A stretch of 64,000 bases of DNA from Patescibacteria group bacterium (GTDB lineage: Bacteria > Patescibacteriota > Minisyncoccia > Minisyncoccales > JAHCRE01), in NCBI GenBank assembly GCA_020148145.1, contig JAHCRE010000011.1:3360-67359 (forward strand), read 5' to 3'. Under the pieces are notes generated by a model. That model saw only the letters and a program-made list of their open reading frames with translations, did not search any database and was not told the origin of the DNA. The translations under genes were made by a program, and so were the position numbers. This document shows positions 609-63,920 of this stretch, piece by piece. Position 1 is the stretch's first letter. Each line of letters begins with the position of its first letter.

Positions 609-655
609 CTTTAATCCCGAGAGTTTTTCTCGGGAGGGGTTTGTTCTTCCAGGAC

Positions 656-685: not shown

Positions 686-726
686 TGAGACATAAATAAG
701 GAGGGGCTGAATAGGAGGCGAGAAGA

Positions 727-936: not shown

Positions 937-1016
937 AAAACCAGAAATAGCATCTATATAGTCTACATGTATGTTGTCTCAAACTCTCTAACTACGGTTG
1001 GAGAGCTTTTTTATTT

Positions 1017-1114: not shown

Positions 1115-1172
1115 TTTTGGTTTTGGGATATTTTTGCTAAAATAATAATATAGTATTTTATTAGGAAAAATT

Positions 1173-1769
1173 ATGGAAGAAGTAATTCCCAAAGAAGAAT
1201 TTAATAAATTGATGAAAATTGAAGGAGAGGTAAAAGGGTCTGCAATTAAGGAGGCCATAAGATTTATTTTCAAAGAAAAAGGGGGAGAGGGAATAAAGAA
1301 ATTAGAGGACACGATAATAAAGCTCGGTTATCCAAAATACAGAGAGATAAAAACAATGGATTTTTATCCTATAGGGATAGCCGCTATTACCCAGATAGTC
1401 ATTAAGAGGCTTTTTAATTTCGACGACAAAAAGCTTCAGGAAATGGGAAAATTTGAGGCCAAATTTTCTTTAATCATCAGACTTTTAACAAAGTATTTAT
1501 TTTCACTTGAGAAGGCAGTTAAGCAAGTCCCAGAAATGTGGGAAAAATACTATACGGTCGGAGATCTTAAAGTGGCTGAATATGATGAAGAGAAAAAATA
1601 TTTAATTTTAAGACTAGAAAATTTCCGTGTCCACCCACTTTTCTGTCAAGTCTTAAAAGGGTATTTTTCCAGCATACTTCAAATGATAGTTAGGGATGAA
1701 ATAACCTGTAAGGAAACAAAGTGTATTTTTCGCGGTGATGAATATGATGAATTTTTACTAAAGTGGTAA
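1173..1769 (+). CDS. hypothetical protein (198 aa), possible V4R/DUF2378-like ligand-binding fold
   Basis: long ORF; C-terminal C..ETKC..GDEY pattern; family guess weak. Confidence 0.55.
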   Translation: MEEVIPKEEFNKLMKIEGEVKGSAIKEAIRFIFKEKGGEGIKKLEDTIIKLGYPKYREIKTMDFYPIGIAAITQIVIKRLFNFDDKKLQEMGKFEAKFSLIIRLLTKYLFSLEKAVKQVPEMWEKYYTVGDLKVAEYDEEKKYLILRLENFRVHPLFCQVLKGYFSSILQMIVRDEITCKETKCIFRGDEYDEFLLKW

Positions 1770-1908
1770 GCAGTAGCATAGGGTTTTATTAAAAAAATTT
1801 GTGAATTTCTTGGTTGACAAACCTTAGATAAAAAAAGAGAATAAAATAAGAACTTTGATTATACTCAAGGTCGAATCGAATAAATAATTTTAATTAAATA
1901 AAATTAAA

Positions 1909-2136
1909 ATGATAGAAACTATTTTTTGGATAATTTTAATTGTCGTAGTAATAGGTCTGATTTGGTATTTTCTTCGGCAAAAAGGAGCACCAGCACCAAC
2001 CGAGGAACCTGAGGAAAAACCGGAAGTTCCATCATCAGAGATTCCTTTGGAGGTTCCTCCCTCAGCAACTCCCCCTGAAATTCCACCATCAGAGACTCCA
2101 CCTGAAGTTCCACCATCGGAAACACCAACCATTTAA
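1909..2136 (+). CDS. small membrane-anchored Pro/Glu-rich repeat protein
   Basis: N-terminal TM (IFWIILIVVVIGLIWYF), then PPSE(T/I)PPE(V/I) repeats; AAGGTCGAA box 40 nt upstream. Confidence 0.5.
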   Translation: MIETIFWIILIVVVIGLIWYFLRQKGAPAPTEEPEEKPEVPSSEIPLEVPPSATPPEIPPSETPPEVPPSETPTI

Positions 2137-2169
2137 TTTTTAAATACGATATAAATATGAAATGTTTTG

Positions 2170-2200
2170 CCCGGTAGGACAACTTGGTTGTACTACTGGG
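2170..2200 (+). terminator. hairpin of the CCCAGTAG..ACTACTGGG family (likely terminator)
   Basis: CCCGGTAGGACAAC-TTG-GTTGTACTACTGGG then TTT; related hairpins at 1056-1086 and 53158-53236. Confidence 0.45.
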
Positions 2201-2249
2201 TTTAGTTGTTAGATATTGACAGAAATTTTGAGTTTGTTATACTCAAAAT

Positions 2250-2355
2250 TAGAGATATTTAAACCACCGAGGAGGGATTAGGAGGAAAGAAATTCAGATA
2301 ATGAATCAAATTCAGCCAAAACCGACTTGGAGGGAGGAAAGGAGGTGGTTTTTTT
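2250..2355 (+). ncRNA. candidate small RNA (or 34-aa ORF) between a promoter and a terminator-like stem
   Basis: TTGACA 2216-2221/TATACT 2238-2243; AAACCACC..GGTGGTTTTTTT closing stem around two purine-rich GGAGG-like tracts. Confidence 0.3.
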
Positions 2356-2735
2356 CGTTGGTACAGTTAAAAAACTGTGTTTTTTTATTGAAGGTTTTTT
2401 ATTGAGGGAAGCTACCTCTGGACACCAAGTTAGATGAGATGAGTTATCTCATTTCCTCCCTAACTTTGGTGTCCGGAGATAATTTCTTTTAATGTTTAAG
2501 ATAGAATGGCCTGTGGAAAACTTTTACTTGACCTACCTTTTGACTTAATTATACAATAATTAAATTGAATAATTTGCTTAGAGGAGGAGCTAAGTAAAAA
2601 ATCAGTGTCCTACCCATCAAAGTTAGGAAATAAAAATTTTATACCTCAAACAAAAACTTCTCAAGAAGGGGAAGTTTTTATTTTTTTATAAATAAAGGTC
2701 AACCAAAAATTAACAATTATAGATTTGTTAAAAAA

Positions 2736-3983
2736 ATGAAAAAAATAATCTTAGCAATAATTTCAGCAACACTATTATTTACTATTCAGTCAACCTTAGC
2801 TACACCTACAAACTTAGTTGTCAATGGAGATTTTGAAACACCAGAAGTCACCAATTCTAGTAAATGGCAGGTTTTTTCCTCAGACGCTGTTCCAGGCTGG
2901 ACAGTAGAATGGGCAGCAGAATATTCAGGAGCACCAGACCCTGCCAATCTTGAGCTGCATGAGGGTGTTCTTATGTCTGCATATGACGGCGATCAGTCTG
3001 TAGAGATGGACACTGATTGGAGTTCAGCCAATGGAGAGCCAGCTTCAGTTAAAATTTATCAGGATATTGAAACATGCGTAGGCGGTGAATACACTTTAAG
3101 TTATGCCTGGTCTCCGCGTCCCAGACACAATAATAATGCAATGGAAGTTTACTGGAATGGAAGTTTAGTTGGAAGTCATTCAGGATCAACTTCTGGTTGG
3201 AACTTAGAGACAATAACCGGTTTAACTGCCTCTGGAGCTACAACCCGAATCGAATTTATTGAAACAGGTAATCCTGATTCTTTGGGAATGTTTTTAGATG
3301 CAGTAAGCGTTGAGCAGACCAAGGATTGTCTTTTAAGGGAAGCAGAAATTACTTCGCCAGCAGCAGGAGATACTATAGTTGGTTCAGTTGATTTCACAGC
3401 TTACTTAATTGATGATGACCAAGATCCTGTCCAGTGGGCTGTTAGAAAAGGAACTTGCGCTATGGGACAAGGCACGGTTTTAGGAAATGTTGATGGACAT
3501 AATGACCCCTATACTTGGACATATGATTCAGGTACCCACACTCATACTTTCTTAGCCACAGCTGATACTTGTGCCTGGGAGCCAGGAGATTATTGTTTTG
3601 TTTTTAATCCCAAAGAAGATAGCGGCGAAAGTGATATCCGCTTAACCCGTGAGTTTATAGTTGCTTCCTGCGATGAAGACGGTGATGGTATTGATAATAA
3701 TGAAGATATGTGTTTAGGAACAGGGGCAGATGTTCCCGAGGAAGAATTAGGAACTAATAGATGGATATGGGATGGGACTGACTGGATAACAAACAAACCA
3801 AAAGGAAAAGGCAAAGGACTTGATAGAGATTTTACTATTGAACAAACTAATGGATGTAGCTGTTTTCAGATACTTTATTGGCTTAATGAAAATTATCTTG
3901 CGGAATATGGTGAAATGAATGGTCATTGGAAATTTGGTTGCAGTAAGAGCGTTATAGAAGATTTTATTTCTCTTACTGACTAA
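2736..3983 (+). CDS. secreted protein: DUF642/choice-of-anchor-C-like N-domain plus Cys/Asp-rich C-terminal region
   Basis: signal peptide; NLVVNGDFE..GW..LDAVSV domain shared with the 5086 protein; CDEDGDGIDNNEDMC calcium-binding-like motif. Confidence 0.75.
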   Translation: MKKIILAIISATLLFTIQSTLATPTNLVVNGDFETPEVTNSSKWQVFSSDAVPGWTVEWAAEYSGAPDPANLELHEGVLMSAYDGDQSVEMDTDWSSANGEPASVKIYQDIETCVGGEYTLSYAWSPRPRHNNNAMEVYWNGSLVGSHSGSTSGWNLETITGLTASGATTRIEFIETGNPDSLGMFLDAVSVEQTKDCLLREAEITSPAAGDTIVGSVDFTAYLIDDDQDPVQWAVRKGTCAMGQGTVLGNVDGHNDPYTWTYDSGTHTHTFLATADTCAWEPGDYCFVFNPKEDSGESDIRLTREFIVASCDEDGDGIDNNEDMCLGTGADVPEEELGTNRWIWDGTDWITNKPKGKGKGLDRDFTIEQTNGCSCFQILYWLNENYLAEYGEMNGHWKFGCSKSVIEDFISLTD

Positions 3984-6386: not shown

Positions 6387-6869
6387 ATGAGAAAGATATT
6401 TGTTGGTTTAGCAGTTCTAGCTTTAGCCTTGATGGCAGTTGCTCCAGCTTTTGCTCGTGGGCCCAAACAGGTTGCTGTAGATAATTGCGCTTTTGTAATA
6501 AATGATGTAACAGCTGTTGGAAAGACTGGTGGAAACAAAATTATAAATATTGCCAGTAAAGGTGGCGATAACGATGGTAACAATACCATTAGGACCGGTG
6601 AAGTCGAGTCTGTTGCTTATGCTGAGACTATGGCTAATTCTAATTTACAAGAAGGTTGCTGCATGAGAAAGCAGATTAATGTAAATAATCATGCTTTTGT
6701 AATGAATGATGTAACAGCTGTTGGAAAAACTGGTGGGAACAAAATTGTTGATGTAGCCACAAAAGGTGGTGCAAGTGGTGGCAACAATTCAATTACTACT
6801 GGTTGGGTTTTGTCTGGAGCTACAGCAATTACTGTTGTTAACAGCAATATTACTAGAGGTGTAGAGTAG
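6387..6869 (+). CDS. secreted minimal protein: signal peptide plus two Asn/Gly-rich repeat modules only
   Basis: 160 aa; same module as the C-termini of the 4037 and 5086 proteins. Confidence 0.75.
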   Translation: MRKIFVGLAVLALALMAVAPAFARGPKQVAVDNCAFVINDVTAVGKTGGNKIINIASKGGDNDGNNTIRTGEVESVAYAETMANSNLQEGCCMRKQINVNNHAFVMNDVTAVGKTGGNKIVDVATKGGASGGNNSITTGWVLSGATAITVVNSNITRGVE

Positions 6870-7012
6870 TAGGACCATAGATATAAGATTGATTGTTAAG
6901 AATAAGGAAGAGGGTTCCTTGCCTCTTCCTCTGGATAAGCTCTTATAAAACCTTATAAAAGATTGATATGAGGGCTTATACAAGGGAAGACTACGACCCA
7001 CCCACCCTAAAT

Positions 7013-7576
7013 ATGAAAAAAAATCTTACAATTATCATTTTGGCTTTAATAATTATTCCTTTATCTGTTCAAGCTTTTTCCTTTGAAGAACTTTTTAACG
7101 AACTAGGAGAACTATTCTCCGATGAAGAATGGTTTTCTGAAGAATGGGTTTCTAATGAAAATGGCGATAGTCAAGTGATAAATAGGATTAATGTTTCAAC
7201 CAATACTGGCGATACAGTAATAAATGGTGAAGTAAAAGAAGGTGAGACAAAGAGTAAAGTCTATGTAAAAAATATTATTAACGGAACAGAAATAGATCCA
7301 ATTGAGATTGAATCTGAGGCAAACGAAGTTAAAGTGGAAAGCGAAATTAAAGTAGAGGATGACAAAGCCATTGTTCAAAGAGAAATCCAGATTGATTCTG
7401 AAACCGAGACAGAAACTTATGAGGTAGATTTGGAAGATGCTGATTCTTGTCTTTCTGAAATGGAAGCTTGTGAAGGGAATTTAGGAGAGACTGAAGAGAG
7501 TGTAACCGGCAGCTGGTGGGGCAACTTCGTTGATAATCTAAAATCTTTTTTCTGGAATATTTTTAGTATTTTTTAA
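7013..7576 (+). CDS. secreted acidic protein (start moved to MKKNLTIIILA)
   Basis: signal peptide begins at in-frame ATG 7013; Glu/Asp-rich. Confidence 0.6.
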   Translation: MKKNLTIIILALIIIPLSVQAFSFEELFNELGELFSDEEWFSEEWVSNENGDSQVINRINVSTNTGDTVINGEVKEGETKSKVYVKNIINGTEIDPIEIESEANEVKVESEIKVEDDKAIVQREIQIDSETETETYEVDLEDADSCLSEMEACEGNLGETEESVTGSWWGNFVDNLKSFFWNIFSIF

Positions 7577-20176: not shown

Positions 20177-20201
20177 TATGTAAAACCGTCACAAAAGAAA
20201 A

Positions 20202-20400
20202 ATAACCCAAAATCGGAGAGGGGCGATAGGGGAACTGGGTGTTCCCCCGAGGTGGAAGTATTGAAACCGCAAGGTTTCAAGGAGCGGAGCGAAGCCCCAA
20301 AGGGGGCGCTCGAGCGAAGCGCGAGAGAGCGGAGCGACGATTTTGGGTAATTGCCATTGTAATGGCAATTATAGGAATAGCTATTAGACTTTTGGGCTGA
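20202..20400 (+). repeat. GC-rich structured element (family GCE-1) plus diverged duplicate of the mraY 3' end
   Basis: 20202-20215 is the reverse complement of mraY 20114-20127; GC core 20216-20337; 20338-20400 repeats mraY 20114-20176 (52/63 nt identical). Confidence 0.8.
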
Positions 20401-20418: not shown

Positions 20419-20436
20419 TTTCTACGATCGTAGAAA
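20419..20436. promoter_or_regulatory. perfect 18-bp palindrome TTTCTACGATCGTAGAAA (candidate operator)
   Basis: ends 8 bp upstream of the -35 of the 20445 promoter; further copies at 47114-47133 and 63901-63920. Confidence 0.6.
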
Positions 20437-28636: not shown

Positions 28637-28664
28637 TTGACAAATTTTGTATATTTGCTATAAT
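28637..28664 (+). promoter_or_regulatory. consensus promoter TTGACA-N16-(TGC)TATAAT driving cassette array 1
   Basis: GCTATTGACAAATTTTGTATATTTGCTATAAT. Confidence 0.65.
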
Positions 28665-28680
28665 TAAAATATAAAGTGAA

Positions 28681-28776
28681 ATAGTTCTTTAAAATAAAAT
28701 ATGGGGAAGGGAAGAATTTCATCTCCCGCAGAGAGGAAATCAAAAACTGGTTTTTTGCCTGCGGGAGAGTGAAAAA
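28681..28776 (+). promoter_or_regulatory. structured 5' leader A (ATAGTTCTTTAAAA, G-box, hairpin, SD)
   Basis: GGGGAAGGGAAGAA 28703-28716; stem CTCCCGCAG 28723-28731 / CTGCGGGAG 28759-28767. Confidence 0.6.
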
Positions 28777-28989
28777 ATGAAGAGAAAAATGTGGGAGAAA
28801 ATACTGAGATACTTCGCTGTGGGAGGAGTCTTTGTAATTATCATACTAGCAAGCGCGGGGGTGATAGTGTTTCTAATAGCATTCTCAGGCCTTGGTCTAG
28901 CGTCTCTACCGTTAGTAGCATGCTTTATCTGTATATTTGCATTCTTCCTACAGGAAAAAGGGATAAAAGCGATACTCGAGTTATTGTGA
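28777..28989 (+). CDS. small 2-TM membrane protein (70 aa), cassette 1
   Basis: two long hydrophobic segments; follows leader A. Confidence 0.6.
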   Translation: MKRKMWEKILRYFAVGGVFVIIILASAGVIVFLIAFSGLGLASLPLVACFICIFAFFLQEKGIKAILELL

Positions 28990-28993
28990 GCAA

Positions 28994-29060
28994 TTCTCCT
29001 TTCCCCTCTTTTTTCGAGCCCGCAAATAGTTGTGGATTCGAAAAAGGAGTTAGTTCTTTA
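28994..29060 (+). repeat. cassette junction J1: C-box plus CTCTTTTTTCGAGC..GAAAAAAGGAG hairpin
   Basis: TTCTCCTTTCCCCTCTTTTTTCGAGCCCGCAAATAGTTGTGGATTCGAAAAAAGGAGTTAGTTC; copies at 29654, 47151(-) and 46381(-). Confidence 0.75.
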
Positions 29061-29148
29061 AAATCAAATATGGGGAAGGGAGAGAATTTATCTCTCGCAG
29101 AGAGGGAGTTAATAAAAATAGCTTCTTGCCTGCGGGAGATGAAAAGAG
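29061..29148 (+). promoter_or_regulatory. structured leader B
   Basis: GGGGAAGGGAGAGA 29072-29085; stem TCTCTCGCAG 29091-29100 / CTGCGGGAGA 29130-29139. Confidence 0.55.
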
Positions 29149-29190
29149 TTGCGGAGGAAAACGGTTGGGAGAAGTAATTTTCTCGGATTC

Positions 29191-29640
29191 ATGATTCGCG
29201 ATAAACGGGAAAGGAAAGTAAGAAGTAAACATTATAGGAAAGGGAAGATAATACTCCTCGGAATACAAGTGGGTATCATTATTATCATCGGGGGTTCCTT
29301 GCTTGATTTAGCGATTATCAGAATTATAAGTGGATTATGGTTTTTAACATTTTTAACACTAACTGCTTTTGTTTTTTTACTATTTTCAAACTGGTTAATT
29401 TATAGTTTGCTGGCCCCTATGCCTTATATTGGCAGGAGTTTCAAAGAATGGCACGCGACAGAGCATAAACTCATATACCTGCTAGAAAATGGTGAAAGAT
29501 TGACATTAGAAAATCTAAGAGCAGCACCATCGCGTAATCGTAGATGCGCAAGCAGAAACATGTGGCTAAAGGAACCTTCGGACGATAAACTAGAAGAAGC
29601 CTTTAGGGTAGGCCGTGAATATCTCAATCTGTTTACTTGA
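29191..29640 (+). CDS. membrane protein with DUF1385-like motifs, cassette 2 (alternative TTG start 29149)
   Basis: 3 TM segments, then WHATEHKLI..LTLENL..RRCAS, resembling the GAEHK/RCGT motifs of DUF1385 (from memory). Confidence 0.55.
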   Translation: MIRDKRERKVRSKHYRKGKIILLGIQVGIIIIIGGSLLDLAIIRIISGLWFLTFLTLTAFVFLLFSNWLIYSLLAPMPYIGRSFKEWHATEHKLIYLLENGERLTLENLRAAPSRNRRCASRNMWLKEPSDDKLEEAFRVGREYLNLFT

Positions 29641-29653
29641 CGAATTTAAAAAA

Positions 29654-29720
29654 TCTCCACTTTCCCTCTTTTTTCGAGCTCATAAACCTTGTGGGCTGAA
29701 AAAAGGAATTGTTCTTTTAA
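29654..29720 (+). repeat. cassette junction J2
   Basis: TCTCCACTTTCCCTCTTTTTTCGAGCTCATAAACCTTGTGGGCTGAAAAAAGGAATTGTTC. Confidence 0.75.
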
Positions 29721-29726
29721 AAATAT

Positions 29727-29810
29727 AAAAAAGGGGAAGTTCACGTAGGTGAATTGTCTATCAAAATTTGGTAAATAGCTCACCTACGTGAAAGGAGGTG
29801 AAAATCAAGT
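29727..29810 (+). promoter_or_regulatory. structured leader C (subtype 2)
   Basis: perfect 13-bp stem TTCACGTAGGTGA 29740-29752 / TCACCTACGTGAA 29780-29792; conserved loop AATTGTCTATCAA..GGTAAATAGCTC; SD AGGAGGTG. Confidence 0.65.
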
Positions 29811-30455
29811 ATGAGTGCAAGTGTAACAAGTAAGAAAAGTGAGACAAGTGAAACGAGAGAAGAAGAACAAGTGAGGCAAGTGAGAAAGGCGTTTGAGAAA
29901 ATGCTCGCAAGTTTTATGTTCGAAGTTAAAAAGAAAGATAAGGTTGATGATATAAGGAAGATGATAAAAACTTTCATTGAGGCTGGAATTCTCCAAGAAC
30001 GAGCAGAACGAGCGCAAATATCCTTTGACATTCGAAAAGGAATCGCTTCTGTCAGTCTTCTTTCCTACGAGAAATATTTTACTAAGCTGTGGAAAGATAC
30101 GTTAGAAAAAATGTCTAAATGGTTCGAGGCCACAATAAAGAGAGAAGCAAAGGCTTTGGGGTTCAATTTTAATTGGCGAGAAGTCGATGGATTCTTTCTT
30201 GACATTCGTACGTCTGACGAAAAAGAAGATCACGAATATGCGAGAGCAACATTATACCGTCCTGAGGCATTTAAGGAAGCACAAAAGATAATGCACTATA
30301 CCCACACGAAGCTAAATGAGTTAGGATTTTCTGCGCAAATCATCAAGGTCGTTACTCCTGGAAAAGTTTACACCATCGATGCATTAAAATACATTGTCCG
30401 AAACATCACTGCCGTCGCTTACTTAAGAACGGGAGTCGAAATTCGTTCCCTCTAA
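29811..30455 (+). CDS. hypothetical protein (214 aa), cassette 3
   Basis: strong SD; no known motif. Confidence 0.65.
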   Translation: MSASVTSKKSETSETREEEQVRQVRKAFEKMLASFMFEVKKKDKVDDIRKMIKTFIEAGILQERAERAQISFDIRKGIASVSLLSYEKYFTKLWKDTLEKMSKWFEATIKREAKALGFNFNWREVDGFFLDIRTSDEKEDHEYARATLYRPEAFKEAQKIMHYTHTKLNELGFSAQIIKVVTPGKVYTIDALKYIVRNITAVAYLRTGVEIRSL

Positions 30456-30506
30456 TACAGAATCTTTAGATTTCTCCTACTTCCCCTTTTTCTTTCTATT
30501 CAAAAA

Positions 30507-40825: not shown

Positions 40826-41782
40826 ATGAAAAAATCAGACAAACCAATTATAAAACATATCCCCGACTTTTTGGATTATTGCGAAATAGAAAAAGGATTA
40901 TCAGAAAAAACTCAAGAGAATTATGATCGCTACCTCCGGAAGTTCGTTTTCTGGCTGAAAAGGACCAAAAAAGAGGCTCTTTTGCCCCACGAGCTAAGTG
41001 CTGATGATATTTGGCATTATAGACTCTATTTATCGAGATATAAGGATAATAAGGGCAAAATCCTTAAAAAAACCACCCAGAACTACTATTTAATCGCTCT
41101 GAGAGCCCTTTTAAGCTATTTTACAGCCAAAGATATAGTTTCACCTCCGGTGGATAAAATAAAGCTCCCAAAGGATGCTAGAAGGGCAAAAACCGTCAAA
41201 TTCCTTAAATTAGAGCAGGTTGAGAAGCTTTTAATGACCCCTAATACTAAAAACAAGATTGGTTTAAGAAACAGGGCTATTTTAGAGACATTATTCTCAA
41301 CCGGCCTAAGAATAGCTGAACTTGTGGCCCTTAATAAAGAACAATTCGCTAATATAAGAAATAAAAAGGATTTGGAGCTTTCAATTATAGGCAAAGGAGA
41401 TGTTCCCCGAACAGTATATTTTTCAGAGCGTGCCTTATCTTGGGTTAAAAAATATTTGGAGACTCGCAAGGATAAGGAAAAAGCCCTATTTATTCATTAT
41501 AGGGCTAGAAAAGACGTAGAATGCCGTTTAACAGCTCGTTCTATAGAAAGAATTGTTAAAAAATATGCAATCTTGGCTGGGGTGCCGATTTTTACTACTC
41601 CCCATACCATCCGCCATTCTTTTGCCACCGATCTCTTAGCGAAAGGCGTTGACTTAAGAACCATACAGGAATTCTTAGGCCACAAAAATATTGTTACCAC
41701 TCAGATATATACCCATGTGACAAGTAAGCGCTTAAGAGACATCCATCGCAAATTTCATAGTGGAAAAAAATTAAAAGAATAA
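40826..41782 (+). CDS. tyrosine recombinase, XerC/XerD family (island integrase or housekeeping Xer)
   Basis: NRAILETLFSTGLRIAELVAL, HTIRHSFATDLL, LGHKNIVTTQIYTHV (R..HxxR..Y). Confidence 0.85.
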   Translation: MKKSDKPIIKHIPDFLDYCEIEKGLSEKTQENYDRYLRKFVFWLKRTKKEALLPHELSADDIWHYRLYLSRYKDNKGKILKKTTQNYYLIALRALLSYFTAKDIVSPPVDKIKLPKDARRAKTVKFLKLEQVEKLLMTPNTKNKIGLRNRAILETLFSTGLRIAELVALNKEQFANIRNKKDLELSIIGKGDVPRTVYFSERALSWVKKYLETRKDKEKALFIHYRARKDVECRLTARSIERIVKKYAILAGVPIFTTPHTIRHSFATDLLAKGVDLRTIQEFLGHKNIVTTQIYTHVTSKRLRDIHRKFHSGKKLKE

Positions 41783-44061: not shown

Positions 44062-45888
44062 CTATCCAGCGCCCCCTCCCCCACCTCCACCACCACCGCC
44101 AGCAGCGCCTCCGACACCACCTACTCCTCCTGTACCTGCTCCTCCGCCAAAAGTTCGGGAAATAGAAGATGTAAAAGAAGAAATGCTTGAAGAAAAAGAA
44201 TTAAAAGATGCTGGAGCACCACCTTTACCACCCCCACCATATGCATAGACAACTGGCACATACCAATTTTGTTTTTGATAAGAAAAATCAGAAAATCTTT
44301 CTGCCCATTTCTTTTCTACACCAAGAATCAAAGCAAAAGGAAGATATTTGGAAAAAGTCTCTAATGTCTCGGCCCCAAGCCTAAACCTCTCAGCCGTTTG
44401 AAGATACTCTTTAAAACCCAGTAATTTCCATTTAGCTTCTAATCCTTTTTGAGTTAAGCTCGGCATATAGTGAGCGAAAATTAAGATAATCGTTGCTGAA
44501 ATAATCAAACTTAATCCAAGAATTGAAATCTGAGCAAAATATCTCACAAGCCCTGTGCCTAAAAGAAAAGACAATATAAGCCAGCCGAAAAAAATGACTA
44601 AAGCCAGAAGGAAAATCTTATTAGAAGTTTTTCCATATTTTTTTCTGACATTAAGGATATTGCCCATAAAATAACCTGTTTCTCCAACTTCTTGATGAAG
44701 TGACTTTTCTATTCCGGGAATCTTCTTATAAAATTTATTTTTCAAATCATCGCTAGAAACCACATTTTTATTTTTAAAAATGTCTCTTATTATTTTTTGT
44801 TCAAAAAGTAAAAGGTCGCTTTCGTCTTTTAACTTCTCGAGAGTGTATTCTCGTGTCTTGAAAATAGAGAAACCTTTTTCTTTTTCTCTAATTCTCAAAT
44901 AACCCCTGACAGCTAAATCAATAATTGTTGCTGTAATATCTTTCATGTGAACGGCCTGGTCAATCAATACTCCGAATACGGCAGGAGGTAAGTTTTCTGG
45001 AGGAGAGTATTGGGCTATAATAGTTTTGCCAATTTTAGGATCTTTACCCCTTTTTCTCCAAAGAATATACATTTTAACAAAAAAGGAAATTGGCAAAGCA
45101 AAAGCAATCAATAAGATTATCCAGTTAATTATCTGGTTGCGATAAAGAAAGGGTTTAGCAACTATTCCCTTGGGCCAAGTTACAACTATGGTCAAAAAAT
45201 TATGCGGCATTATATTATATCCCCAAAATCTAACCGTTTGACTACCAATGACTTGATAATTACTACTTTCGGTTTTACTCCCCAATGGCCCAATAAATAA
45301 TTTTTGCCCTATTTGTTCTCTTTCGATCCCCCTGGGTAAATGAACTACAACTTCGGCCTGCCTTACTTCAACTTCTCTGTCTTCAAAAATAGCATTCCAA
45401 TAAAGCTCATCCCATTTCTCATAAAAACCTAGGCCACCATGAACTTTATACTTTATTGTCCAAGACCTTAACTCGTTATCAAACACTTTCCTGGGAAAGT
45501 TCCATTGAACACTCAATCTGTTTCTTTTGTAGGAGATTTTATACTCATTTTTATCTAATTTTTTCCCTTGGCCATCAAAAACCTCAATATCGGAAATGTG
45601 GTCTAAGTCCTTCAGTTCAATATCACGATAAAAATAACCGAAATCGCCCTTCAGGTTGTAGGTCTGTTTTTCCGTAACATCAAAAGTGCTATCTTGATTA
45701 ATTTGGATATCTACCTCAATTGAGTGATAATAATAACTTTTATTTAAAGCAGCCTGGCAAAAATCATAACTTCCTACTTCTAAAAATAAGAGGGTAAAAA
45801 ATATTAAAAAGAATAATCCTAAACTAAACTTCTTTAATTTTCCATTTATTTTAAACATACCTTTCAATAAAAAATGTTTATACATCAA
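44062..45888 (-). CDS. DUF2207-type membrane protein with Gly-rich C-terminus
   Basis: usual LemA partner; extracellular N-domain, several TMs, terminal GGGGGAG tail. Confidence 0.75.
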   Translation of the reverse strand: MMYKHFLLKGMFKINGKLKKFSLGLFFLIFFTLLFLEVGSYDFCQAALNKSYYYHSIEVDIQINQDSTFDVTEKQTYNLKGDFGYFYRDIELKDLDHISDIEVFDGQGKKLDKNEYKISYKRNRLSVQWNFPRKVFDNELRSWTIKYKVHGGLGFYEKWDELYWNAIFEDREVEVRQAEVVVHLPRGIEREQIGQKLFIGPLGSKTESSNYQVIGSQTVRFWGYNIMPHNFLTIVVTWPKGIVAKPFLYRNQIINWIILLIAFALPISFFVKMYILWRKRGKDPKIGKTIIAQYSPPENLPPAVFGVLIDQAVHMKDITATIIDLAVRGYLRIREKEKGFSIFKTREYTLEKLKDESDLLLFEQKIIRDIFKNKNVVSSDDLKNKFYKKIPGIEKSLHQEVGETGYFMGNILNVRKKYGKTSNKIFLLALVIFFGWLILSFLLGTGLVRYFAQISILGLSLIISATIILIFAHYMPSLTQKGLEAKWKLLGFKEYLQTAERFRLGAETLETFSKYLPFALILGVEKKWAERFSDFSYQKQNWYVPVVYAYGGGGKGGAPASFNSFSSSISSFTSSISRTFGGGAGTGGVGGVGGAAGGGGGGGGGGAG

Positions 45889-45964
45889 ATTATATCACGA
45901 AAAAAGCCCGAGAACAACCCCCGGGAAAACACATCCTCTACTCTATTAAGTTTGTTAAATTTTT

Positions 45965-46180
45965 AGAAATAAAAAAAGGAGGCACATAGCGATGTGCCTT
46001 TAAGGATGACTAAGTATATTAAGGTGCTATATCCCCATTCAGAAAAAAAGGGGAAGAGAGCTTTCTTTGGGATGGTGTTCTCACCCACCAAGAGGCCCCA
46101 TGCGAAGAGTAGGCTCTCGGTAAACGCACGTGCAAACAGGGTTTCATACATGCAGAAAGGCCCAAAGAAAACCCTCTAAT
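45965..46180 (-). ncRNA. candidate structured RNA or decayed cassette ending in a strong terminator
   Basis: long-range TTCTTTGGG/CCCAAAGAA pairing, C-box CTCTCTTCCCC, terminator GGCACATCGCTATGTGCC + T-run (45971-45998); weak promoter TTGACA 46213-46208. Confidence 0.25.
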
Positions 46181-46300
46181 TTCTATCATTGCTTAAAATA
46201 ATACTTCTGTCAAGTCAATAAAATCCACATGAGGAGAATTAAAAATAAAAAAATGCCCGGTAATGGACTTTTTAAAATCTCTTTTTAAATTAGAAGTAGT

Positions 46301-46345
46301 GAGGGGAGAAGTGAACTATGCGTATCGCTCCTGCTTCTCCCCCCT
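46301..46345 (-). repeat. 'empty cassette': G-box and C-box back to back
   Basis: minus strand GGGGGGAGAAG-N23-CTTCTCCCCTC directly after junction J5. Confidence 0.5.
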
Positions 46346-46380
46346 TTGGGTCAAAGATTTGCCCTCATTATTATTGGGCT

Positions 46381-46472
46381 CACCTCCTTTTTCCAACCGA
46401 CAATGTGCTTCCTCGGCATATTCGCTAAAGAGGCGAAATTGCAAGCTAGAAAAAAGAGGGGAAGGAGAAATT
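46381..46472 (-). repeat. cassette junction J5
   Basis: minus strand AATTTCTCCTTCCCCTCTTTTTTCTAGC..GGTTGGAAAAAGGAGGTGAGC. Confidence 0.65.
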
Positions 46473-46476
46473 GTTA

Positions 46477-46977
46477 TTAATCAAAGTTTTGTAAAGTTCT
46501 TGGAATCATTTTTATTGGAATCGCTTTTATTGGAATCACTTTTACTTGGATTACTTCCAATGTTTTCTTTGCTGATGCTAATTCCTTTTCGATTAATGCC
46601 AACTCCTTTTCAGATTCATCAATCATCCCTCGCATTAATATTTCTGTGGCAATATACTGCCCAATGGTTATTTTCTTTATACCCTTTTTTTTCCACAATC
46701 TTACGATGGCTTTTGATAATCTTAATTTGGGTTTGTCAATATCTATTACTTCTCTTAGTGCCTGCCTTATTTCGCTTCCACTCAACTTTAGATGTTTCAT
46801 AATATCTCCAAAAGTATTGTGTTCAGCACATATTTGCCTCGCACAATTATCGATCTCTTCTTTTTTTACCCCGATAGCCTCATGGGATGTCTCTTTCTCG
46901 TGTCTTATTTTGTCCAAGATTATAATTATATTTTTTTTCTTTTCCAATTTTTTTCGCCTCTGCAGACAAGAGACCAA
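46477..46977 (-). CDS. hypothetical protein, array-2 cassette (start uncertain); C-terminal xIPIK repeats from a 15-bp tandem repeat (46500-46559)
   Basis: ORF after leader E; TTGGAATC(N)CTTTTA x ~4. Confidence 0.5.
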   Translation of the reverse strand: MVSCLQRRKKLEKKKNIIIILDKIRHEKETSHEAIGVKKEEIDNCARQICAEHNTFGDIMKHLKLSGSEIRQALREVIDIDKPKLRLSKAIVRLWKKKGIKKITIGQYIATEILMRGMIDESEKELALIEKELASAKKTLEVIQVKVIPIKAIPIKMIPRTLQNFD

Positions 46978-47045
46978 TGGTTCGATAAACTCACCACAAG
47001 TTTTTGATTTCCTCTCTGCAGAGGTGAATTTCTTCTCCTTCCCTT
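46950..47045 (-). promoter_or_regulatory. structured leader E (subtype 1)
   Basis: minus strand GGGAAGGAGAAG box, then CCTCTGCAG..CTGCAGAGG stem. Confidence 0.5.
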
Positions 47046-47113
47046 TTAATTTTGTTAAAGAGCTATTTAATAAAATTTAAGATTTTTTTCTGATAAATCT
47101 TGCCTGTCATACA

Positions 47114-47133
47114 TTTTCTACGATCGTAGAAAA
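47114..47133. promoter_or_regulatory. perfect 20-bp palindrome TTTTCTACGATCGTAGAAAA
   Basis: between junction J4 and leader E. Confidence 0.6.
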
Positions 47134-47150
47134 CACGGTCCATTTTATAG

Positions 47151-47212
47151 CTACTCCTTTTTCCAGACCGCAATTTTCATTACGAGCTCGAAAAAAGAGA
47201 GGGAGGAAGAGG
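47151..47212 (-). repeat. cassette junction J4
   Basis: minus strand CCTCTTCCTCCCTCTCTTTTTTCGAGCTCGTAATGAAAATTGCGGTCTGGAAAAAGGAGTAGC. Confidence 0.7.
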
Positions 47213-47286
47213 TTTATATCTCTTACGACGAGACAGACCAAGGTACTTCTTCATGAAAAACAAAGAGATGGATTATGACGGCAAGA

Positions 47287-47490
47287 TTAGACATTAGAAA
47301 GTGTTGCTTTAAGGATTAACATTTTTTTAACTTCCTCTGGTATGGGCTTCTGTACTAGGGCATCGCAGAAGGGACATTTGTATCGGTAGACTTTGATAGT
47401 GATTATACCAGCTTCGTTACTAAAAGAAACATGTTGCTTGAACTCCATTTCGCAGTTTTTGCACTTCCTATCAAGTTCTATGGAGGGCAT
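47287..47490 (-). CDS. small zinc-ribbon protein (67 aa), array-2 cassette
   Basis: CKNC ... CPFC pairs; follows leader D. Confidence 0.6.
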   Translation of the reverse strand: MPSIELDRKCKNCEMEFKQHVSFSNEAGIITIKVYRYKCPFCDALVQKPIPEEVKKMLILKATLSNV

Positions 47491-47600
47491 TTTTTATTCC
47501 TCTTTGGACGAGCGAGCTATCTACCACAATTGATAGACAATTCGCTCGCCTAAAATCCTTCCTTCCCCATAAATTTTATCAAAGAACTATCTCATTTTAC
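47491..47600 (-). promoter_or_regulatory. structured leader D (subtype 2)
   Basis: minus strand ATAGTTCTTTGATAAAATTTATGGGGAAGGAAGGA, stem GGCGAGCGA/TCGCTCGTC, loop ATTGTCTATCAA..GGTAGATAGCTC. Confidence 0.65.
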
Positions 47601-47606
47601 ATCTTA

Positions 47607-47636
47607 ATTATACCATATACGTTTTAAATTTGTCAA
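47607..47636 (-). promoter_or_regulatory. consensus promoter driving array 2
   Basis: minus strand CTTGACAAATTTAAAACGTATATGGTATAAT. Confidence 0.65.
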
Positions 47637-47707
47637 GCCCTGGACAACAAAAACCCGAGGAAACTCTCGGGCTGATATTTACTGGGTTTTCATTCTATTT
47701 TTTTTCC

Positions 47708-47863
47708 TTAAATTGAAGTAATAAAAGAAAATATAAGAAATGCAATTATAACTAAAATACAAAATTTCAAACCTTCGTTTTCAGTACGGGTCAAATATTC
47801 AATCAGACTAACTAAGAAAACAATTATGAATGCTGTAATGAGAGTTATATATAAAATATTCAT
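47708..47863 (-). CDS. possible 51-aa 2-TM membrane peptide (below the track cutoff)
   Basis: MNILYITLITAFIIVFLVSLIEY..ILVIIAFLIFSFITSI; bidirectional terminator at 47654-47671. Confidence 0.35.
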   Translation of the reverse strand: MNILYITLITAFIIVFLVSLIEYLTRTENEGLKFCILVIIAFLIFSFITSI

Positions 47864-47890
47864 TAAGATGCTTTTTTAATAATTATTTTT

Positions 47891-48046
47891 CTATTTTTTC
47901 CTTTTCAACTCTTCGATATCGTATTTTAAATCTCTAATCTCGTTCCTAAGGCCCTCGATAGTCTCTTTAAGGTTATAAAGTATATCTCGAATTCTTTCTA
48001 CCTCTCTTTTTATAGCATAAACTTCATTTCGAATTTCTTCTTTCAT
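47891..48046 (-). CDS. possible 51-aa coiled-coil peptide (below the track cutoff)
   Basis: MKEEIRNEVYAIKREVERIRDILYNLKETIEGLRNEIRDLKYDIEELKRKK. Confidence 0.35.
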   Translation of the reverse strand: MKEEIRNEVYAIKREVERIRDILYNLKETIEGLRNEIRDLKYDIEELKRKK

Positions 48047-63900: not shown

Positions 63901-63920
63901 TTTTCTACAATCGTAGAATT
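63901..63920. promoter_or_regulatory. imperfect copy of the TTTCTACGATCGTAGAAA palindrome upstream of grpE
   Basis: TTTTCTACAATCGTAGAATT, ~50 nt upstream of the grpE ATG. Confidence 0.5.

Follow-up and report, generated by a model that had tools for sequence, protein, structure and literature searches.

Organization of array 2

Array 2 lies on the minus strand of the window (the whole 64-kb stretch of DNA that was analysed) and carries two small open reading frames (ORFs); coordinates below refer to the minus strand unless stated otherwise. The features that a preliminary description had listed between 45965 and 47640 were all found on that strand, within a few bases of where they had been placed. 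Just upstream of the array promoter, the terminator scan detected an insulating terminator hairpin (CCCGAGAG...CTCGGG and a T-run; 47652..47673), which belongs to a conserved 'array head' of ~120 nt (47670-47553) that is 77-83% identical to the array heads in L017, L040, L043 and L077. The promoter itself (47607..47636) is of the consensus sigma-70 type, with TTGACA, an 18-nt spacer and an extended -10 element TG-n-TATAAT (12/12 consensus matches), and the pattern has zero matches in any shuffle of the window. It had been described as near-identical to the promoter at 656-685, and indeed only three spacer bases differ between the two.

The first boxA-like motif (AGTTCTTTGATAAAAT; 47573..47588) includes, at 47577-47587, the sequence GTTCTTTGATA, which has one mismatch to GYTCTTTAANA, the boxA (NusB/NusE) consensus (PMC5725501). 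It is followed by G-box 1 (GGGGAAGGAAGGA; 47556..47568), a purine-rich leader strand that is partly complementary to the pyrimidine trailer strand, C-box 1 (CCTCTTCCTCCCT; 47200..47212). Between the two boxes lie leader hairpin D (47506..47550; -26.8 kcal/mol, z = -4.55), a type-2 hairpin with the core GAATTGTCTATCA...GGTAGATAGCTC that is common to many loci and leaves the Shine-Dalgarno (SD) ribosome-binding sequence AGAGGA unpaired, and the ORF of cassette 1 (47287..47490). As had been proposed, this ORF encodes a 67-aa zinc-ribbon-like protein with the pattern CxxC...CxxC, for which only sub-threshold zinc-ribbon matches were obtained. The protein is an orphan without homologue in the fetched loci, its exact sequence is not on record, and the gene table of the source record has no gene at 47287..47490. 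C-box 1 lies directly upstream of junction hairpin J4 (CUCUUUUUUC-GAGC...GUCU-GGAAAAAGGAG; 47154..47199), and the junction previously placed at 47151-47212 resolves into these two elements. J4 matches covariance model R1 of the junction hairpin (JH) family with 62.8 bits (E = 8e-13), against 35.5 bits for its antisense reading, and folds with z = -4.2.

Between the cassettes is an operator-like element (47114..47142), composed of TGGACCGTG and a palindrome, TTTTCTACGATCGTAGAAAA (47114-47133), whose 20 bp are perfect, in line with the preliminary description. The element has three copies in the window against 0.02 expected, one of which, at 20420, is located 9 nt upstream of a consensus promoter, and it is kept in L030 and L059 in another reading frame and in either orientation. 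A 26-codon mini-ORF that runs over it (47063-47143) is probably not real. As RNA the palindrome has a z-score of -0.95 and is the exception to the strong folding of array 2 and the adjacent small RNA, whose elements fold far below the energy of shuffled sequence (z -4.2 to -5.0). A possible weak internal promoter (ATGACA, 17 nt, AAAAAT; 47082..47110; 9/12 matches) is found 17 nt upstream of the second boxA-like motif, the corresponding distance from the main promoter to the first motif being 18 nt.

The second boxA-like motif (AGCTCTTTAACAAAAT; 47049..47064) contains GCTCTTTAACA at 47053-47063, a perfect match to the consensus. GYTCTTTAANA has five matches against 1.4 expected by chance, and boxA-like A/U-rich motifs are not rare at 36% GC. 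G-box 2 (GGGAAGGAGAA; 47033..47043) and C-box 2 (TTCTCCTTCCC; 46459..46469) are perfectly complementary over their 11 nt. That a perfect 11-bp inverted repeat flanks the second ORF was thereby confirmed, and the only two exact copies of the repeat in 64 kb are those at 47033-47043 on the minus strand and 46459-46469 on the plus strand. Leader hairpin E (46955..47026; -34.2 kcal/mol, z = -4.3) is of type 1; its 5' arm masks a GAGG SD in the 3' arm, and within its loop there is an insert of 22 nt (46977-46998). The ORF of cassette 2 had been read as 166 aa (from 46977). The ORF is present, and its most likely start is the TTG at 46947, since the gene caller of the source and the orthologue in L096 agree on it, which gives a protein of 156 aa (46477..46947). 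The L096 orthologue is 54% identical, relatives in L013 and L030 are 25-34% identical, L079 joins the family only via L030, and no protein family scored above threshold. The cassette ends with J5 (46384..46458; -34.6 kcal/mol, z = -4.7), a member of the JH family that matches the covariance model only partially because of a ~31-nt apical insert. In the L096 orthologue the equivalent is a canonical 44-nt hairpin without this insert.

Downstream of J5 follows a terminal module. In its first part (46345..46383), GGUGA lengthens the 3' arm of J5, which thereby becomes the near-full SD AAGGAGGUGA. A small hairpin (GCCC...GGGC) comes next, then a boxA-like sequence, UCUUUGACC; a 5-codon mini-ORF found here (46351-46368) is not conserved in L013. 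The module continues with a terminal G/C hairpin (46301..46344; -23.9 kcal/mol, z = -4.4), in which GGGGGGAGAAG and CUUCUCCCCUC enclose 22 nt. The preliminary description had recognized this hairpin, giving it a 23-nt spacer and the span 46301-46345; the boundaries are 46301-46344, with 11+22+11 nt. Its interpretation as a gene-free cassette site does not hold. The hairpin recurs in four other genomes (L013, L085, L086 and L021), and across the five genomes 4 of its 15 pairs show compensatory changes, a gene was never seen inside it and no junction hairpin comes after it. Compared with L085, the hairpin is 93% identical and 21 of the 22 loop positions are the same. An ordinary terminator at 46301-46344 was also considered and rejected because the U-run is missing after the hairpin, which is followed by ACUACUUCUAAUUUAAAAAG and was not picked up in the terminator scan. 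In L013 and L086, the terminal hairpin is distinct from a canonical terminator that is found 25-30 nt beyond it. Rather than a vacant slot, 46301-46344 is a conserved module found at the 3' end of such arrays. In array 2, a weak terminator-like hairpin (GUCC...GGGC and a U-run; 46241..46268) is the probable end of the array transcript.

Conservation of the RNA chassis and gain and loss of its modules

The proposal that array 2 consists of tandem units sharing a single, recurrent grammar was borne out. Each unit consists of a boxA-like motif, the purine G-box after ~8 nt, an optional leader hairpin that hides the SD in its type-1 form, one small ORF, the pyrimidine C-box 4-40 nt past the stop codon and a JH of 44-75 nt. 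The grammar had been equated with that of array 1, with which array 2 shares the promoter and terminator head and nothing else: in region 1-3000 no junction hairpin scores, and the boxA and junction-arm patterns are without match. The true sibling of array 2, with the same grammar, is at 28638-30500 on the plus strand, and the window holds only four junction hairpins, all at cistron ends inside the two arrays. Searches with the junction-hairpin pattern gave nine matches in five Patescibacteria-type MAGs, 69 stretches in metagenomes (with full context in ~55) and a single match in viral contigs, which is probably due to chance. In 55/55 parsed units, the elements kept a strict order and orientation with respect to promoters and to start and stop codons. 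The boxA consensus was matched perfectly in 20/55 units and with at most one mismatch in 54/55, counts that are to be read with the fact that the parser itself selected for a boxA-like motif. The median distance from boxA to G-box was 8 nt (interquartile range 8-10).

The cargo of these units is diverse. Each of the 55 has one ORF of roughly 60-206 aa, three apparent ORFs of 21-37 aa being parser artefacts in unusually long units; they fall into 46 protein families, and ~90% are without a Pfam match. Where the nucleotides of the chassis are 75-85% identical, the cargo proteins are 25-54% identical. The same chassis surrounds dozens of unrelated small genes, is widespread in Patescibacteria and is far more conserved than its cargo. 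We found no previous description of these RNA modules. A comparison of the window with Rfam 15 returned tRNAs and one RNase P RNA only (within 45700-47900 the best E-value was 0.45, all hits being far under the gathering scores), and rRNA is absent from the window and from L001-L089.

Covariation supports the JH as a structure of the sense-strand RNA. In an alignment of 43 sequences with 20 pairs, 90% of the cells are paired and nine pairs change on both sides, values that were reached in 0/500 shuffles. There are ~110 G.U cells against ~30 C.A cells, the sense-strand model scores 20-27 bits above the antisense one, the wobble U4.G44 is invariant and a central mismatch is kept. The type-1 leader hairpin is likewise a sense-strand RNA structure backed by covariation, with compensatory changes in 12 of its 21 pairs. 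The pairing of G-box and C-box is of modest specificity. Duplexes between cognate boxes average -19.45 kcal/mol against -16.74 for non-cognate ones (permutation p <= 1e-4) and 12.6 against 11.7 Watson-Crick base pairs (p = 0.03), and the cognate partner has a median rank of ~11 of 55. Unusual boxes, as in L079, L013, L034, L030 and L010, still match their own partner. On the sense strand there are 20 G.U and 28 A.C mismatches, that is, no excess of G.U.

Modular gain and loss of cassettes, as suggested in the preliminary description, is supported by the different cassette content of syntenic loci. The uppS locus of the window carries the 67-aa and 156-aa cassettes, that of L097 carries cassettes of 106, 200 and 298 aa, and those of L095 and L096 are free of cassettes; at the rplU-recR locus, differing sets are found in L030, L059 and L086 (flanked by rplU) and in L013 (flanked by recR). 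Chassis modules also come and go between relatives. Besides the junction-loop insert, two further modules are missing from the orthologous cassette of L096, namely the leader hairpin of 72 nt and the terminal G/C hairpin.

Proposed mechanism and alternative explanations

Tentatively, and with slightly less than even confidence, we read array 2 as a short, strongly transcribed operon of two unrelated small genes, each placed in a standardised RNA chassis. As to how the chassis could work, the likeliest mechanism, although we would stop just short of giving it an even chance, combines antitermination as in rRNA operons with leader-trailer pairing, RNA processing and masking of the SD. The design of the array would then copy that of ribosomal RNA operons. 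The boxA would bring NusB/NusE and other Nus factors to RNA polymerase, so that transcription could proceed, without termination by Rho, across RNA that is highly structured and little translated, and the G-box would stay close to the polymerase until the C-box appears. A leader-trailer helix around the cistron could then form between the two boxes. RNase III is the most plausible candidate for cutting or binding this helix as well as the junction hairpin of ~20 bp and the long hairpins of the leaders; the outcome would be individual mRNAs with protected ends, and access to the SD would be controlled.

An unlikely alternative is that the chassis is a translational device only, in which the G-box is, or derives from, an SD that is masked by the C-box and by the 5' arm of type-1 leaders, the JH pairs its SD-like arm GGAAAAAGGAG with a pyrimidine arm, and boxA is a mere A/U-rich enhancer without Nus factors. 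Such a device would set or couple translation, for example through re-initiation by terminating ribosomes near the 5' end. In L096, where the orthologous cassette is without the leader hairpin, the G-box GGGAAGGTGA is a plain SD 5 nt upstream of the TTG start, which suggests that the G/C pair could be a device of the SD/anti-SD kind that does not involve Nus factors. A TTG start also comes directly after the G-box in L061. GGAG or GAGG is present in the 3' arm of every type-1 leader. In the JH, the 3' arm is extended to AAGGAGGTG after J5 and in L013, L021, L085 and L086, reaching in L086 the full complement of the 16S 3' end, and in L069 an ATG follows the extended arm after 6 nt. What a purely translational device leaves unexplained is the fixed distance of ~8 nt from a NusB/E-consensus motif to every G-box and the invariant U.G wobble and central mismatch of the JH, and in type-2 leaders the SD is free.

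That the modules are selfish repeats of the REP or MITE type, which spread and decay in intergenic DNA and produce the grammar as a by-product of tolerated insertions, seems to us quite improbable. Such repeats would account for the exact presence or absence of the 72-nt leader hairpin and of the ~31-nt junction-loop insert between orthologous cassettes, for the nearly palindromic JH, and for the 22-nt loop insert, which also occurs in L022 and L035, is inverted in L051 and sits in the junction-hairpin loop in L086, that is, in different hairpin types and both orientations. They would not account for the strict order and orientation of all parsed units or for the strong sense-strand covariation and wobble bias; no transposase is associated, and all junction hairpins of the window are confined to arrays. 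Moreover, the JH copies within the window differ and some resemble that of another genome (the GGATTCG variant is common to the window and CR_Bin_053), which argues against recent bursts. Even less probable is an integron-like system of DNA cassettes, a flavour of the earlier 'cassette site' wording, in which the JH would be the site of a tyrosine recombinase and 46301-46344 a vacant one. The ORFs, which are small, diverse and for the most part orphans, would fit it, as would the imperfect palindrome after each of them, conserved at its ends and variable in the middle, the differing content of syntenic loci and the XerC/D-like gene that, in the window as well as in L095 and L096, bounds the variable region on the downstream side of uppS. 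However, attC sites recombine as the folded bottom strand, and the JH folds best on the sense strand; its ends, CTCTTTTTTC and GAAAAAGGAG, have no core sites of the attC type (R''/L''/L'/R'). The only tyrosine recombinase in the window (40826-41782) is XerC/D-like (221 bits) and reaches 91 bits as an integron integrase, for which the cut-off is 265; its gene is more than 4 kb from array 2, and the window otherwise holds housekeeping genes. Each unit has a 5' RNA leader, the arrays have promoters of their own, and the loop of the supposed vacant site is conserved and the site never occupied. Finally, it is hardly credible that this is an ordinary two-gene operon in an AT-rich genome, in which purine and pyrimidine runs and hairpins look alike by chance. 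The promiscuous pairing of the boxes, with -16.7 kcal/mol still reached by non-cognate pairs, is in favour of such a reading, which is contradicted by JH model matches with E-values of 1e-11 to 1e-13, by the conservation of the composite across many genomes and by the covariation.

Comparison with known systems

The proposed rRNA-operon-like mechanism draws on the rrn operons of Escherichia coli, in which boxA in leader and spacer, boxC, Nus-factor antitermination and a leader-trailer RNase III helix have been described (PMC10250234, PMC5725501, PMC3177189). Like rrn, the array is driven by a very strong promoter, and a boxA that matches GYTCTTTAANA is found close to the 5' end of its transcript and again before each downstream unit. 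A box at a fixed short distance past boxA is complementary to sequence just after the enclosed gene, and long hairpins separate the units. Unlike rrn, its units enclose small protein-coding ORFs instead of rRNA, the helix has ~11-18 bp (short for RNase III) compared with 25-40 bp for the rrn leader-trailer helix, the distance from boxA to the box is ~8 nt and not 18-19 nt, there is no boxB, and the G-box resembles an SD and can act as one. On the side of the array, Nus-factor binding and RNase III cleavage are putative. That boxA can control protein-coding genes is known from suhB and a ParE-like toxin gene (Baniulyte et al. 2017, PMC5725501); in the gamma-proteobacteria, a published search gave 0-7 mRNA boxA sites per genome, at single genes, and the effect was proposed to act via an RNA loop between boxA and the polymerase (PMC5725501). 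The array has in common with this type of control a boxA in the 5' UTR of the mRNA, tens of nucleotides from the SD. It differs in that every cistron of multi-gene arrays has a boxA together with trailer boxes and junction hairpins, and in that the cargo consists of orphan small genes that are not translation-related.

With integron arrays, the arrays share tandem small, diverse ORFs of mostly unknown function that have one orientation, each followed by an imperfect palindrome, and a content that varies between relatives. In contrast to integrons, they have no IntI, attI or R''/R' core sites (GTTRRRY), their hairpin is favoured on the sense strand, and they are many, short (1-4 units) and dispersed, with their own promoters and an RNA leader for each unit. 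Intercistronic palindromes shape the fate of mRNAs in several systems, such as the REP/BIME stabilisers of E. coli, the RNase III sites that separate the early genes of phage T7 and the Correia elements of Neisseria. The arrays resemble these in having conserved hairpins at the cistron boundaries of polycistronic RNA, which are plausible processing or stabilising sites, but the composite has multiple parts in a fixed order, its sequence family is specific to Patescibacteria, and it has no transposase and is absent from Rfam. Palindromes of the REP/BIME type are recognised by numerous copies dispersed over a genome and by a RAYT-type transposase; the 64 kb of the window hold four junction hairpins. 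As in RNA thermometers and riboswitch platforms, the SD is paired in the type-1 leader, here with a 5' arm that resembles an anti-SD (UCACCUCC-type), and the pairing is backed by covariation; unlike in those systems, a single leader is used by unrelated genes, the inner stem and the loop of this leader are conserved (GGAAAUCAAAAA...GGUUUCC), and no ligand or temperature logic is evident.

It is conceivable, though rather doubtful, that Patescibacteria possess a new plug-and-play system for accessory genes, in which RNA modules (an rRNA-type boxA, an SD-like G-box, its complementary C-box and the JH), and not an integrase site, mark the boundaries of a cassette, and in which leader hairpins, loop inserts and terminal hairpins are swapped between cassettes. 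If so, all the orphan small proteins would be governed post-transcriptionally by a single common switch. RNase III or Nus factors could provide it, and it might be linked to life as an episymbiont.

A neighbouring small RNA gene

The ~200-nt segment next to the array, for which a structured RNA or a decayed cassette had been envisaged, is a conserved small RNA (45967..46184; z = -5.0) without Rfam family. A decayed cassette was rejected, as the segment has its own promoter and is present in relatives that lack array 2. The promoter (TTGACA, 17 nt, AATGAT; 46185..46213) lies outside the array, and its -35 element, CTTGACA, is kept in L095 and L096. Both the long-range pairing and the strong terminator that had been noted here were found, and the segment is indeed richer in GC, with 50% at 46045-46178 and 35.7% in the window as a whole. 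A 17-bp long-range helix (46161-46177 with 46055-46071) closes a variable domain, the 3' part has a small CCCC...GGGG hairpin and then a conserved unpaired stretch of ~35 nt, and the terminator spans 45967-45999 (a hairpin at 45980-45999 and a U-run). Homologues with the same architecture are located at 6574-6764 in L095 and 7202-7453 in L096, and the ~200-nt RNA is an independent, conserved small RNA gene.

Organization of array 2

Here, we have read the minus strand of the window directly between 45800 and 47800 and found every feature that the preliminary description, made from the sequence alone, had listed for array 2. Behind a terminator hairpin (47652-47673), the array starts at an extended -10 promoter (47607-47636) that matches the consensus at 12 of 12 positions and differs from the promoter at 656-685 in three spacer bases and nothing else; the pattern common to both promoters has zero occurrences in shuffled sequence. 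The first chassis unit consists of a boxA-like motif (47573-47588), a purine G-box (47556-47568), a long leader hairpin of type 2 (leader D, 47506-47550), a zinc-ribbon ORF of 67 aa with a CxxC...CxxC pattern (47287-47490), a pyrimidine C-box (47200-47212) and the junction hairpin J4 (47154-47199). After a perfect palindrome of 20 bp (47114-47133), the second unit comprises boxA 2 (47049-47064), G-box 2 (GGGAAGGAGAA, 47033-47043), a leader hairpin of type 1 (leader E, 46955-47026), an ORF ending at 46477, C-box 2 (TTCTCCTTCCC, 46459-46469), which is the exact complement of G-box 2, and the junction hairpin J5 (46384-46458). The 11-mer GGGAAGGAGAA and its complement are the sole exact copies within 64 kb. 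Then come a G/C hairpin (46301-46344), whose boxes are 22 nt apart and not 23 as first counted, and a GC-richer structured segment with a strong terminator at its end (45967-45999), all on the same strand. The boxA motifs of the array, AGUUCUUUGAUAA and AGCUCUUUAACAA, are candidate NusB-NusE sites, and the folding z-scores of its elements range from -4.2 to -5.0, the palindrome as RNA excepted.

The second ORF had been given as 166 aa. The ORF is there, and its product is likely to be 156 aa, starting from TTG 46947, a start on which the source's gene caller and the orthologue concur. The 67-aa ORF is absent from the gene table of the source record (L091; L-numbers denote sequence loci fetched for comparison) despite its full chassis and free Shine-Dalgarno sequence (SD), and annotation probably misses other small cassette genes like it. 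When population variants of the same genome were sought, no record was found for the exact 67-aa protein or for P0001, and the look-up of L27 returned the source contig and a short fragment of another assembly, nothing else.

Distribution of the chassis and its cargo

A search of one genome per species with the junction-hairpin pattern CTCTTTTTTCKAGC-N15-45-AAAAAGGA gave 9 matches in five Patescibacteria-type MAGs, among them one of Candidatus Paceibacterales and one of an uncultured bacterium (L010) in which the grammar is complete; the other 11 stretches seem to be chance matches. Metagenome contigs contributed 69 matching stretches, roughly 55 of them with full context. The frame thus sought occurs as short dispersed arrays across Patescibacteria. 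Among 2.9 million viral contigs there was one match, probably a chance one, and a phage origin of the elements was rejected on this single match and the sparse PHROGs matches to cassette proteins. In all true matches a pyrimidine box lies directly upstream of the junction hairpin. On its 3' side follows the next unit (boxA, G-box and leader), a terminator, a new promoter, or a terminal composite of GGAGGTG, a small hairpin and a G/C hairpin, as found after J5 and in relatives.

Parsing from boxA through the junction hairpin yielded 55 non-redundant units, each with one ORF of roughly 60-206 aa, whose stop codon is 4-40 nt upstream of the junction hairpin in most units; three units of unusual length with apparent ORFs of 21-37 aa were dismissed as artefacts of the parser. 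The ORFs represent 46 families, and Pfam matches were obtained for about 5 of 49, namely DUF1385 (twice), a low-molecular-weight phosphatase, an HTH protein and a cupin. In one locus (L085 2900-3400, plus strand), a promoter (TTCTTGACAAAAATTAAAAAATTTGCTATAAT) occurs in two identical copies, each with a structured non-coding stretch on its 3' side; the second such stretch leads into a zinc-ribbon cassette ending with a junction hairpin and a terminal hairpin.

Junction and leader hairpins

We show, from the comparison of aligned copies, that the junction and type-1 leader hairpins are coding-strand RNA structures under RNA-level selection. In an alignment of 43 copies, the junction hairpin has 20 bp with 90% of cells paired, and nine pairs have changed on both sides. 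None of 500 shuffles did as well, and the pairing breaks down when the register is shifted. The wobble U4.G44 is present in 43 of 43 copies. Since G.U cells (about 110) outnumber C.A cells (about 30), the opposite strand would fold much worse, and in a covariance model the sense strand leads the antisense strand by 20-27 bits. The type-1 leader (24 copies, including leader E) has 21 pairs, 12 of them with compensatory changes, and many wobbles on the sense strand. Every type-1 leader carries a GGAG or GAGG SD in its paired 3' arm, a few bases upstream of the start codon, and the SD is therefore buried. In type-2 leaders, among them leader D, the core GAAUUGUCUAUCA...GGUAGAUAGCUC is conserved and the SD stays unpaired. 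Rfam searches of the window and 13 loci at gathering and permissive thresholds returned nothing relevant.

A sequence of about 22 nt, TGTGGTGAGTTTATCGAACCAT, lies in the loop of a type-1 leader hairpin at 46977-46998 (minus strand). It recurs in type-1 leader loops of two further genomes (L022 around 8150; L035, minus strand), is inverted in a fourth (L051) and sits in a junction-hairpin loop of a fifth (L086 1290-1315). It may be a very small mobile insert or a transferable RNA module.

The terminal hairpin, the small RNA and the palindrome

The G/C hairpin at 46301-46344 had been taken for an empty cassette site. That it recurs in L013, L085, L086 and L021, after a junction hairpin and GGAGGTG, and never encloses a gene argues against this reading. 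Its stem changes in a compensatory manner from GAGAAG/CUUCUC in the window to GAGGAG/CUCCUC in L085, and at stem position 2 the window has G.U, L013 A-U and L086 G-C. Four of the 15 pairs in the alignment of five copies have compensatory changes. The loop, identical at 21 of 22 positions in L085 and similar in L086, varies in size from 22 to about 55 nt, with no gene inside any copy. No junction hairpin and no U-run follow it; an ordinary terminator was rejected because the U-run is missing. The closest orthologous cassette, in L096, is without this hairpin. Judging by these copies, some arrays end in a conserved RNA module, and 46301-46344 is one example of it; our guess is that it protects the 3' end or binds a protein.

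The segment of about 200 nt that follows (45967-46184, minus strand) had been proposed to be either a structured RNA or a decayed cassette. It has homologues in syntenic position in L095 (6574-6764) and L096 (7202-7453), two genomes without array 2, and all three copies have a -35 element CTTGACA; conservation away from the array and a promoter of its own speak against a decayed cassette. The proposal of a structured RNA is upheld by its folding and by a closing helix of 16-17 bp with compensatory differences among the three copies. This helix, of which the C-box-like run is a part, encloses a variable domain, about 50, 90 and 120 nt long in the three copies. The molecule is completed by a small CCCC...GGGG hairpin, a conserved unpaired stretch of about 35 nt (AUAGCACCUUAAYA.A.U.AGUCAUCMUUA) and a terminator. 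On this comparison the segment is a predicted independent small RNA gene. It has no match in Rfam; BLAST found no homologue in the first 90 loci, and the homologues came from the syntenic uppS loci. No convincing target complementary to the unpaired stretch was found in the window.

The window has three copies of the palindrome TTCTACGATCGTAGAA (20420-20435, 47116-47131 and 63903-63918), where 0.02 copies are expected by chance, and further copies are in L030 (2368-2383) and L059 (2187-2202 and around 655-675). The copy at 20420 is 9 nt upstream of a consensus promoter. In L059 one copy is just upstream of rplU and a second is between cassettes, and in L030 it is again between cassettes, in a reading frame unlike that of the window copy. 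Its placement and change of frame suggest that it acts as a DNA operator and not as part of a 26-codon mini-ORF, and it is probably a binding site for a dimeric regulator. This mini-ORF after J4 was discarded because elsewhere the palindrome is kept in a different frame and orientation, and a 5-codon mini-ORF after J5 because it has no start codon in L013. On the 3' side of the palindrome, array 2 reads ATGACA, 17 nt, AAAAAT, 17 nt and boxA 2. As the main promoter is a similar 18 nt from boxA 1, cassette 2 may be served by a weak, regulated promoter of its own. Just upstream of the palindrome and consensus promoter at 20420 is a markedly GC-rich non-coding stretch with repeats (20200-20350, plus strand; ...GAGCGGAGCGAAGCCCC...GAGCGAAGCGCGAGAGAGCGGAGCGACG...) that has no Rfam match.

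Turnover of cassettes between relatives

The proposal that cassettes are modular and are gained and lost is borne out by the differing content of two loci. Between rplU and recR, neither of which is in the window, L030 has an unannotated gene of about 70 aa, a 206-aa relative of the 156-aa protein, the palindrome and a 33-aa gene, L086 has one zinc-ribbon gene and the terminal composite, and L059 has three other genes and the palindrome. L013, assigned to this locus by its recR flank alone, as its upstream side is beyond the locus end, has a 113-aa relative, the terminal composite and a structured region of about 430 nt. This GC-rich, apparently structured region (around 6810-7280, minus strand) lies between the terminal module and recR and has its own consensus promoter and a boxA-like motif; it contains no long ORF and no Rfam match at E <= 0.05.

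At the syntenic locus ctpB-rplI-pyrG-rpmA-uppS, which continues with two genes of about 51 aa, the window has array 2 and then the small RNA after the two small genes. L095 (CR_Bin_053 type) has a 77-aa gene and then the small RNA, with neither an array nor a junction hairpin; L096 (CR_Bin_039) has an HD-domain gene, a 77-aa gene and then the small RNA, without an array on that strand; and L097 has an array with cassettes of 106, 200 and 298 aa. On the DUF2207 side, the upstream DNA of the two closest relatives (81-83% protein identity) is unrelated. A gene for an XerC/D-like tyrosine recombinase, scoring under the XerC and XerD equivalog cut-offs, bounds the far side of the variable region downstream of uppS in the window (40826-41782, plus strand), L095 (8851-9807) and L096 (7452-8408).

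To judge from the identities found, the chassis is conserved and its cargo changes fast: the 156-aa protein is 25-34% identical to its relatives in L013 and L030, with L079 belonging to the family via L030 alone, and the flanking chassis is 75-85% identical in nucleotides. A true orthologue of the 156-aa gene, with 54% amino-acid identity, forms a one-unit array in L096 (8540-9290, minus strand), immediately upstream of xerC/D. Compared with this cassette, its counterpart in the window (46280-47110) has a type-1 leader hairpin of 72 nt added exactly between the G-box and the TTG start, an apical insert of about 31 nt in the junction hairpin, and the terminal composite where L096 has a plain terminator. 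These differences suggest that modules are exchanged below the level of the cassette.

boxA and the pairing of G-box and C-box

The motif upstream of every G-box fits the NusB/NusE boxA consensus GYTCTTTAANA (PMC5725501), to which boxA 2 is a perfect match. Agreement is perfect in 20 of 55 units and within one mismatch in 54 of 55, counts that are partly circular because the parser selected for boxA-like motifs. The median distance from boxA to the G-box is 8 nt (interquartile range 8-10). In the rRNA operons of E. coli, boxA is followed by boxC, which is part of the 5' strand in the leader-trailer helix around 16S rRNA and overlaps an RNase III site (PMC10250234). The chassis units match this leader-trailer logic on a smaller scale, although their G/C helices have only about 11-18 bp. 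No rRNA was found in the window or in L001-L089 when the rRNA leaders of these organisms were sought.

The mean duplex energy of cognate G-box and C-box pairs is -19.45 kcal/mol, compared with -16.74 kcal/mol for non-cognate pairs (permutation p <= 1e-4), and Watson-Crick matches average 12.6 bp in cognate and 11.7 bp in non-cognate pairs (p = 0.03). As both boxes are of low complexity, this specificity is modest. Even atypical boxes pair with their own partners, as in L079 (AAAAAGAAGAGGG with CCCTCTTCTTTTT) and L030 (GGATGAAGG with CCTTCTTCATCC). The boxes have no sense-strand G.U bias (20 versus 28), and hence only their context argues for pairing as RNA.

Possible mechanism and significance

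The chassis has a set order and orientation of parts, an SD buried by type-1 leaders, a G-box complementary to its C-box, and a consensus boxA at a consistent spacing. We propose tentatively, at just short of an even chance, that these parts work in an rrn-like manner. The boxA would recruit Nus factors so that the polymerase reads through structured, weakly translated RNA, and the G-box would be held near the polymerase till its partner C-box emerges. The G/C leader-trailer helix, the junction hairpin of about 20 bp and the long leaders would then be substrates of a double-strand-specific RNase or binding protein, which could split the cistrons apart, shield their ends, and expose or hide the SD. 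The main competing explanation, a pure SD/anti-SD translational device in which Nus factors are not involved, draws on the observation that a G-box can itself be the SD, as is GGGAAGGTGA in L096, 5 nt upstream of TTG; we regard it as unlikely.

Two further explanations concern DNA. That the hairpins are selfish repeats seems to us quite improbable, and an integron-like DNA system more doubtful still. Neither agrees as well with the facts, as the elements are strictly placed relative to genes, have a sense-strand bias and are without attC features, and the window has no integron integrase, its sole recombinase being XerC/D-like.

Each part of the rrn-like arrangement is of a known kind, be it boxA, leader-trailer pairing, intercistronic hairpins or SD-masking leaders. 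For their combination into a standard frame around dozens of unrelated orphan genes, we found no account in Rfam or in full-text searches of the literature outside subscription journals. Patescibacteria (Candidate Phyla Radiation) have tiny genomes full of small proteins of unknown function, and to our knowledge almost nothing is known about their gene regulation. If a chassis with rRNA-type signals governs many orphan genes, the regulation of these genes becomes directly testable, and boxA/Nus biology would take in an entire class of accessory genes, besides rRNA and a few genes under autoregulation. The analysis adds a conserved small RNA and at least four conserved RNA motifs without a counterpart in Rfam (the junction hairpin, two leader types and the terminal hairpin), and the chassis offers a simple sequence signature to find and delimit real small genes missed by gene callers.

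Array 1, a sibling array and their surroundings

The statement that array 2 follows the grammar of array 1 holds for the head of promoter and terminator that they have in common; the rest of the grammar is without a match. The covariance model detected no junction hairpin in 1-3000, and the boxA and junction-arm patterns had no match in array 1. The true sibling of array 2 is a third array (28638-30500, plus strand) of three units with identical grammar. Its promoter TTGACA...TATAAT (28638-28665) precedes genes for a 70-aa membrane protein, a DUF1385-like membrane protein of about 150 aa and a 214-aa protein, with junction hairpins at 29006-29049 and 29666-29708 and a C-box and terminator at the array end. 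In CR_Bin_053 (L003), the syntenic position downstream of gltX also holds an array. The genes around the arrays are those of an ordinary chromosome (Hsp70, DnaJ, GrpE, GltX, CTP synthase, UppS, L27 and FtsW).

A GC-rich terminator-like element (CGCCCCGAGAGCGAAGCCGTGAACCGAAT...ATTCTGGTTCTGCGGTTTTTCTCGGGG) lies on both sides of the first gene of array 1 (225-300 and 1018-1125, plus strand), and its second copy is interrupted by an insert of about 37 nt. Directly upstream of the terminator/promoter head of array 1, 575-610 (plus strand) resembles the 3' half of a tRNA, with a GGTTCGAGTCC T-arm and an acceptor end. ARAGORN called no tRNA there, and a complete tRNA occupies the equivalent position in L017.
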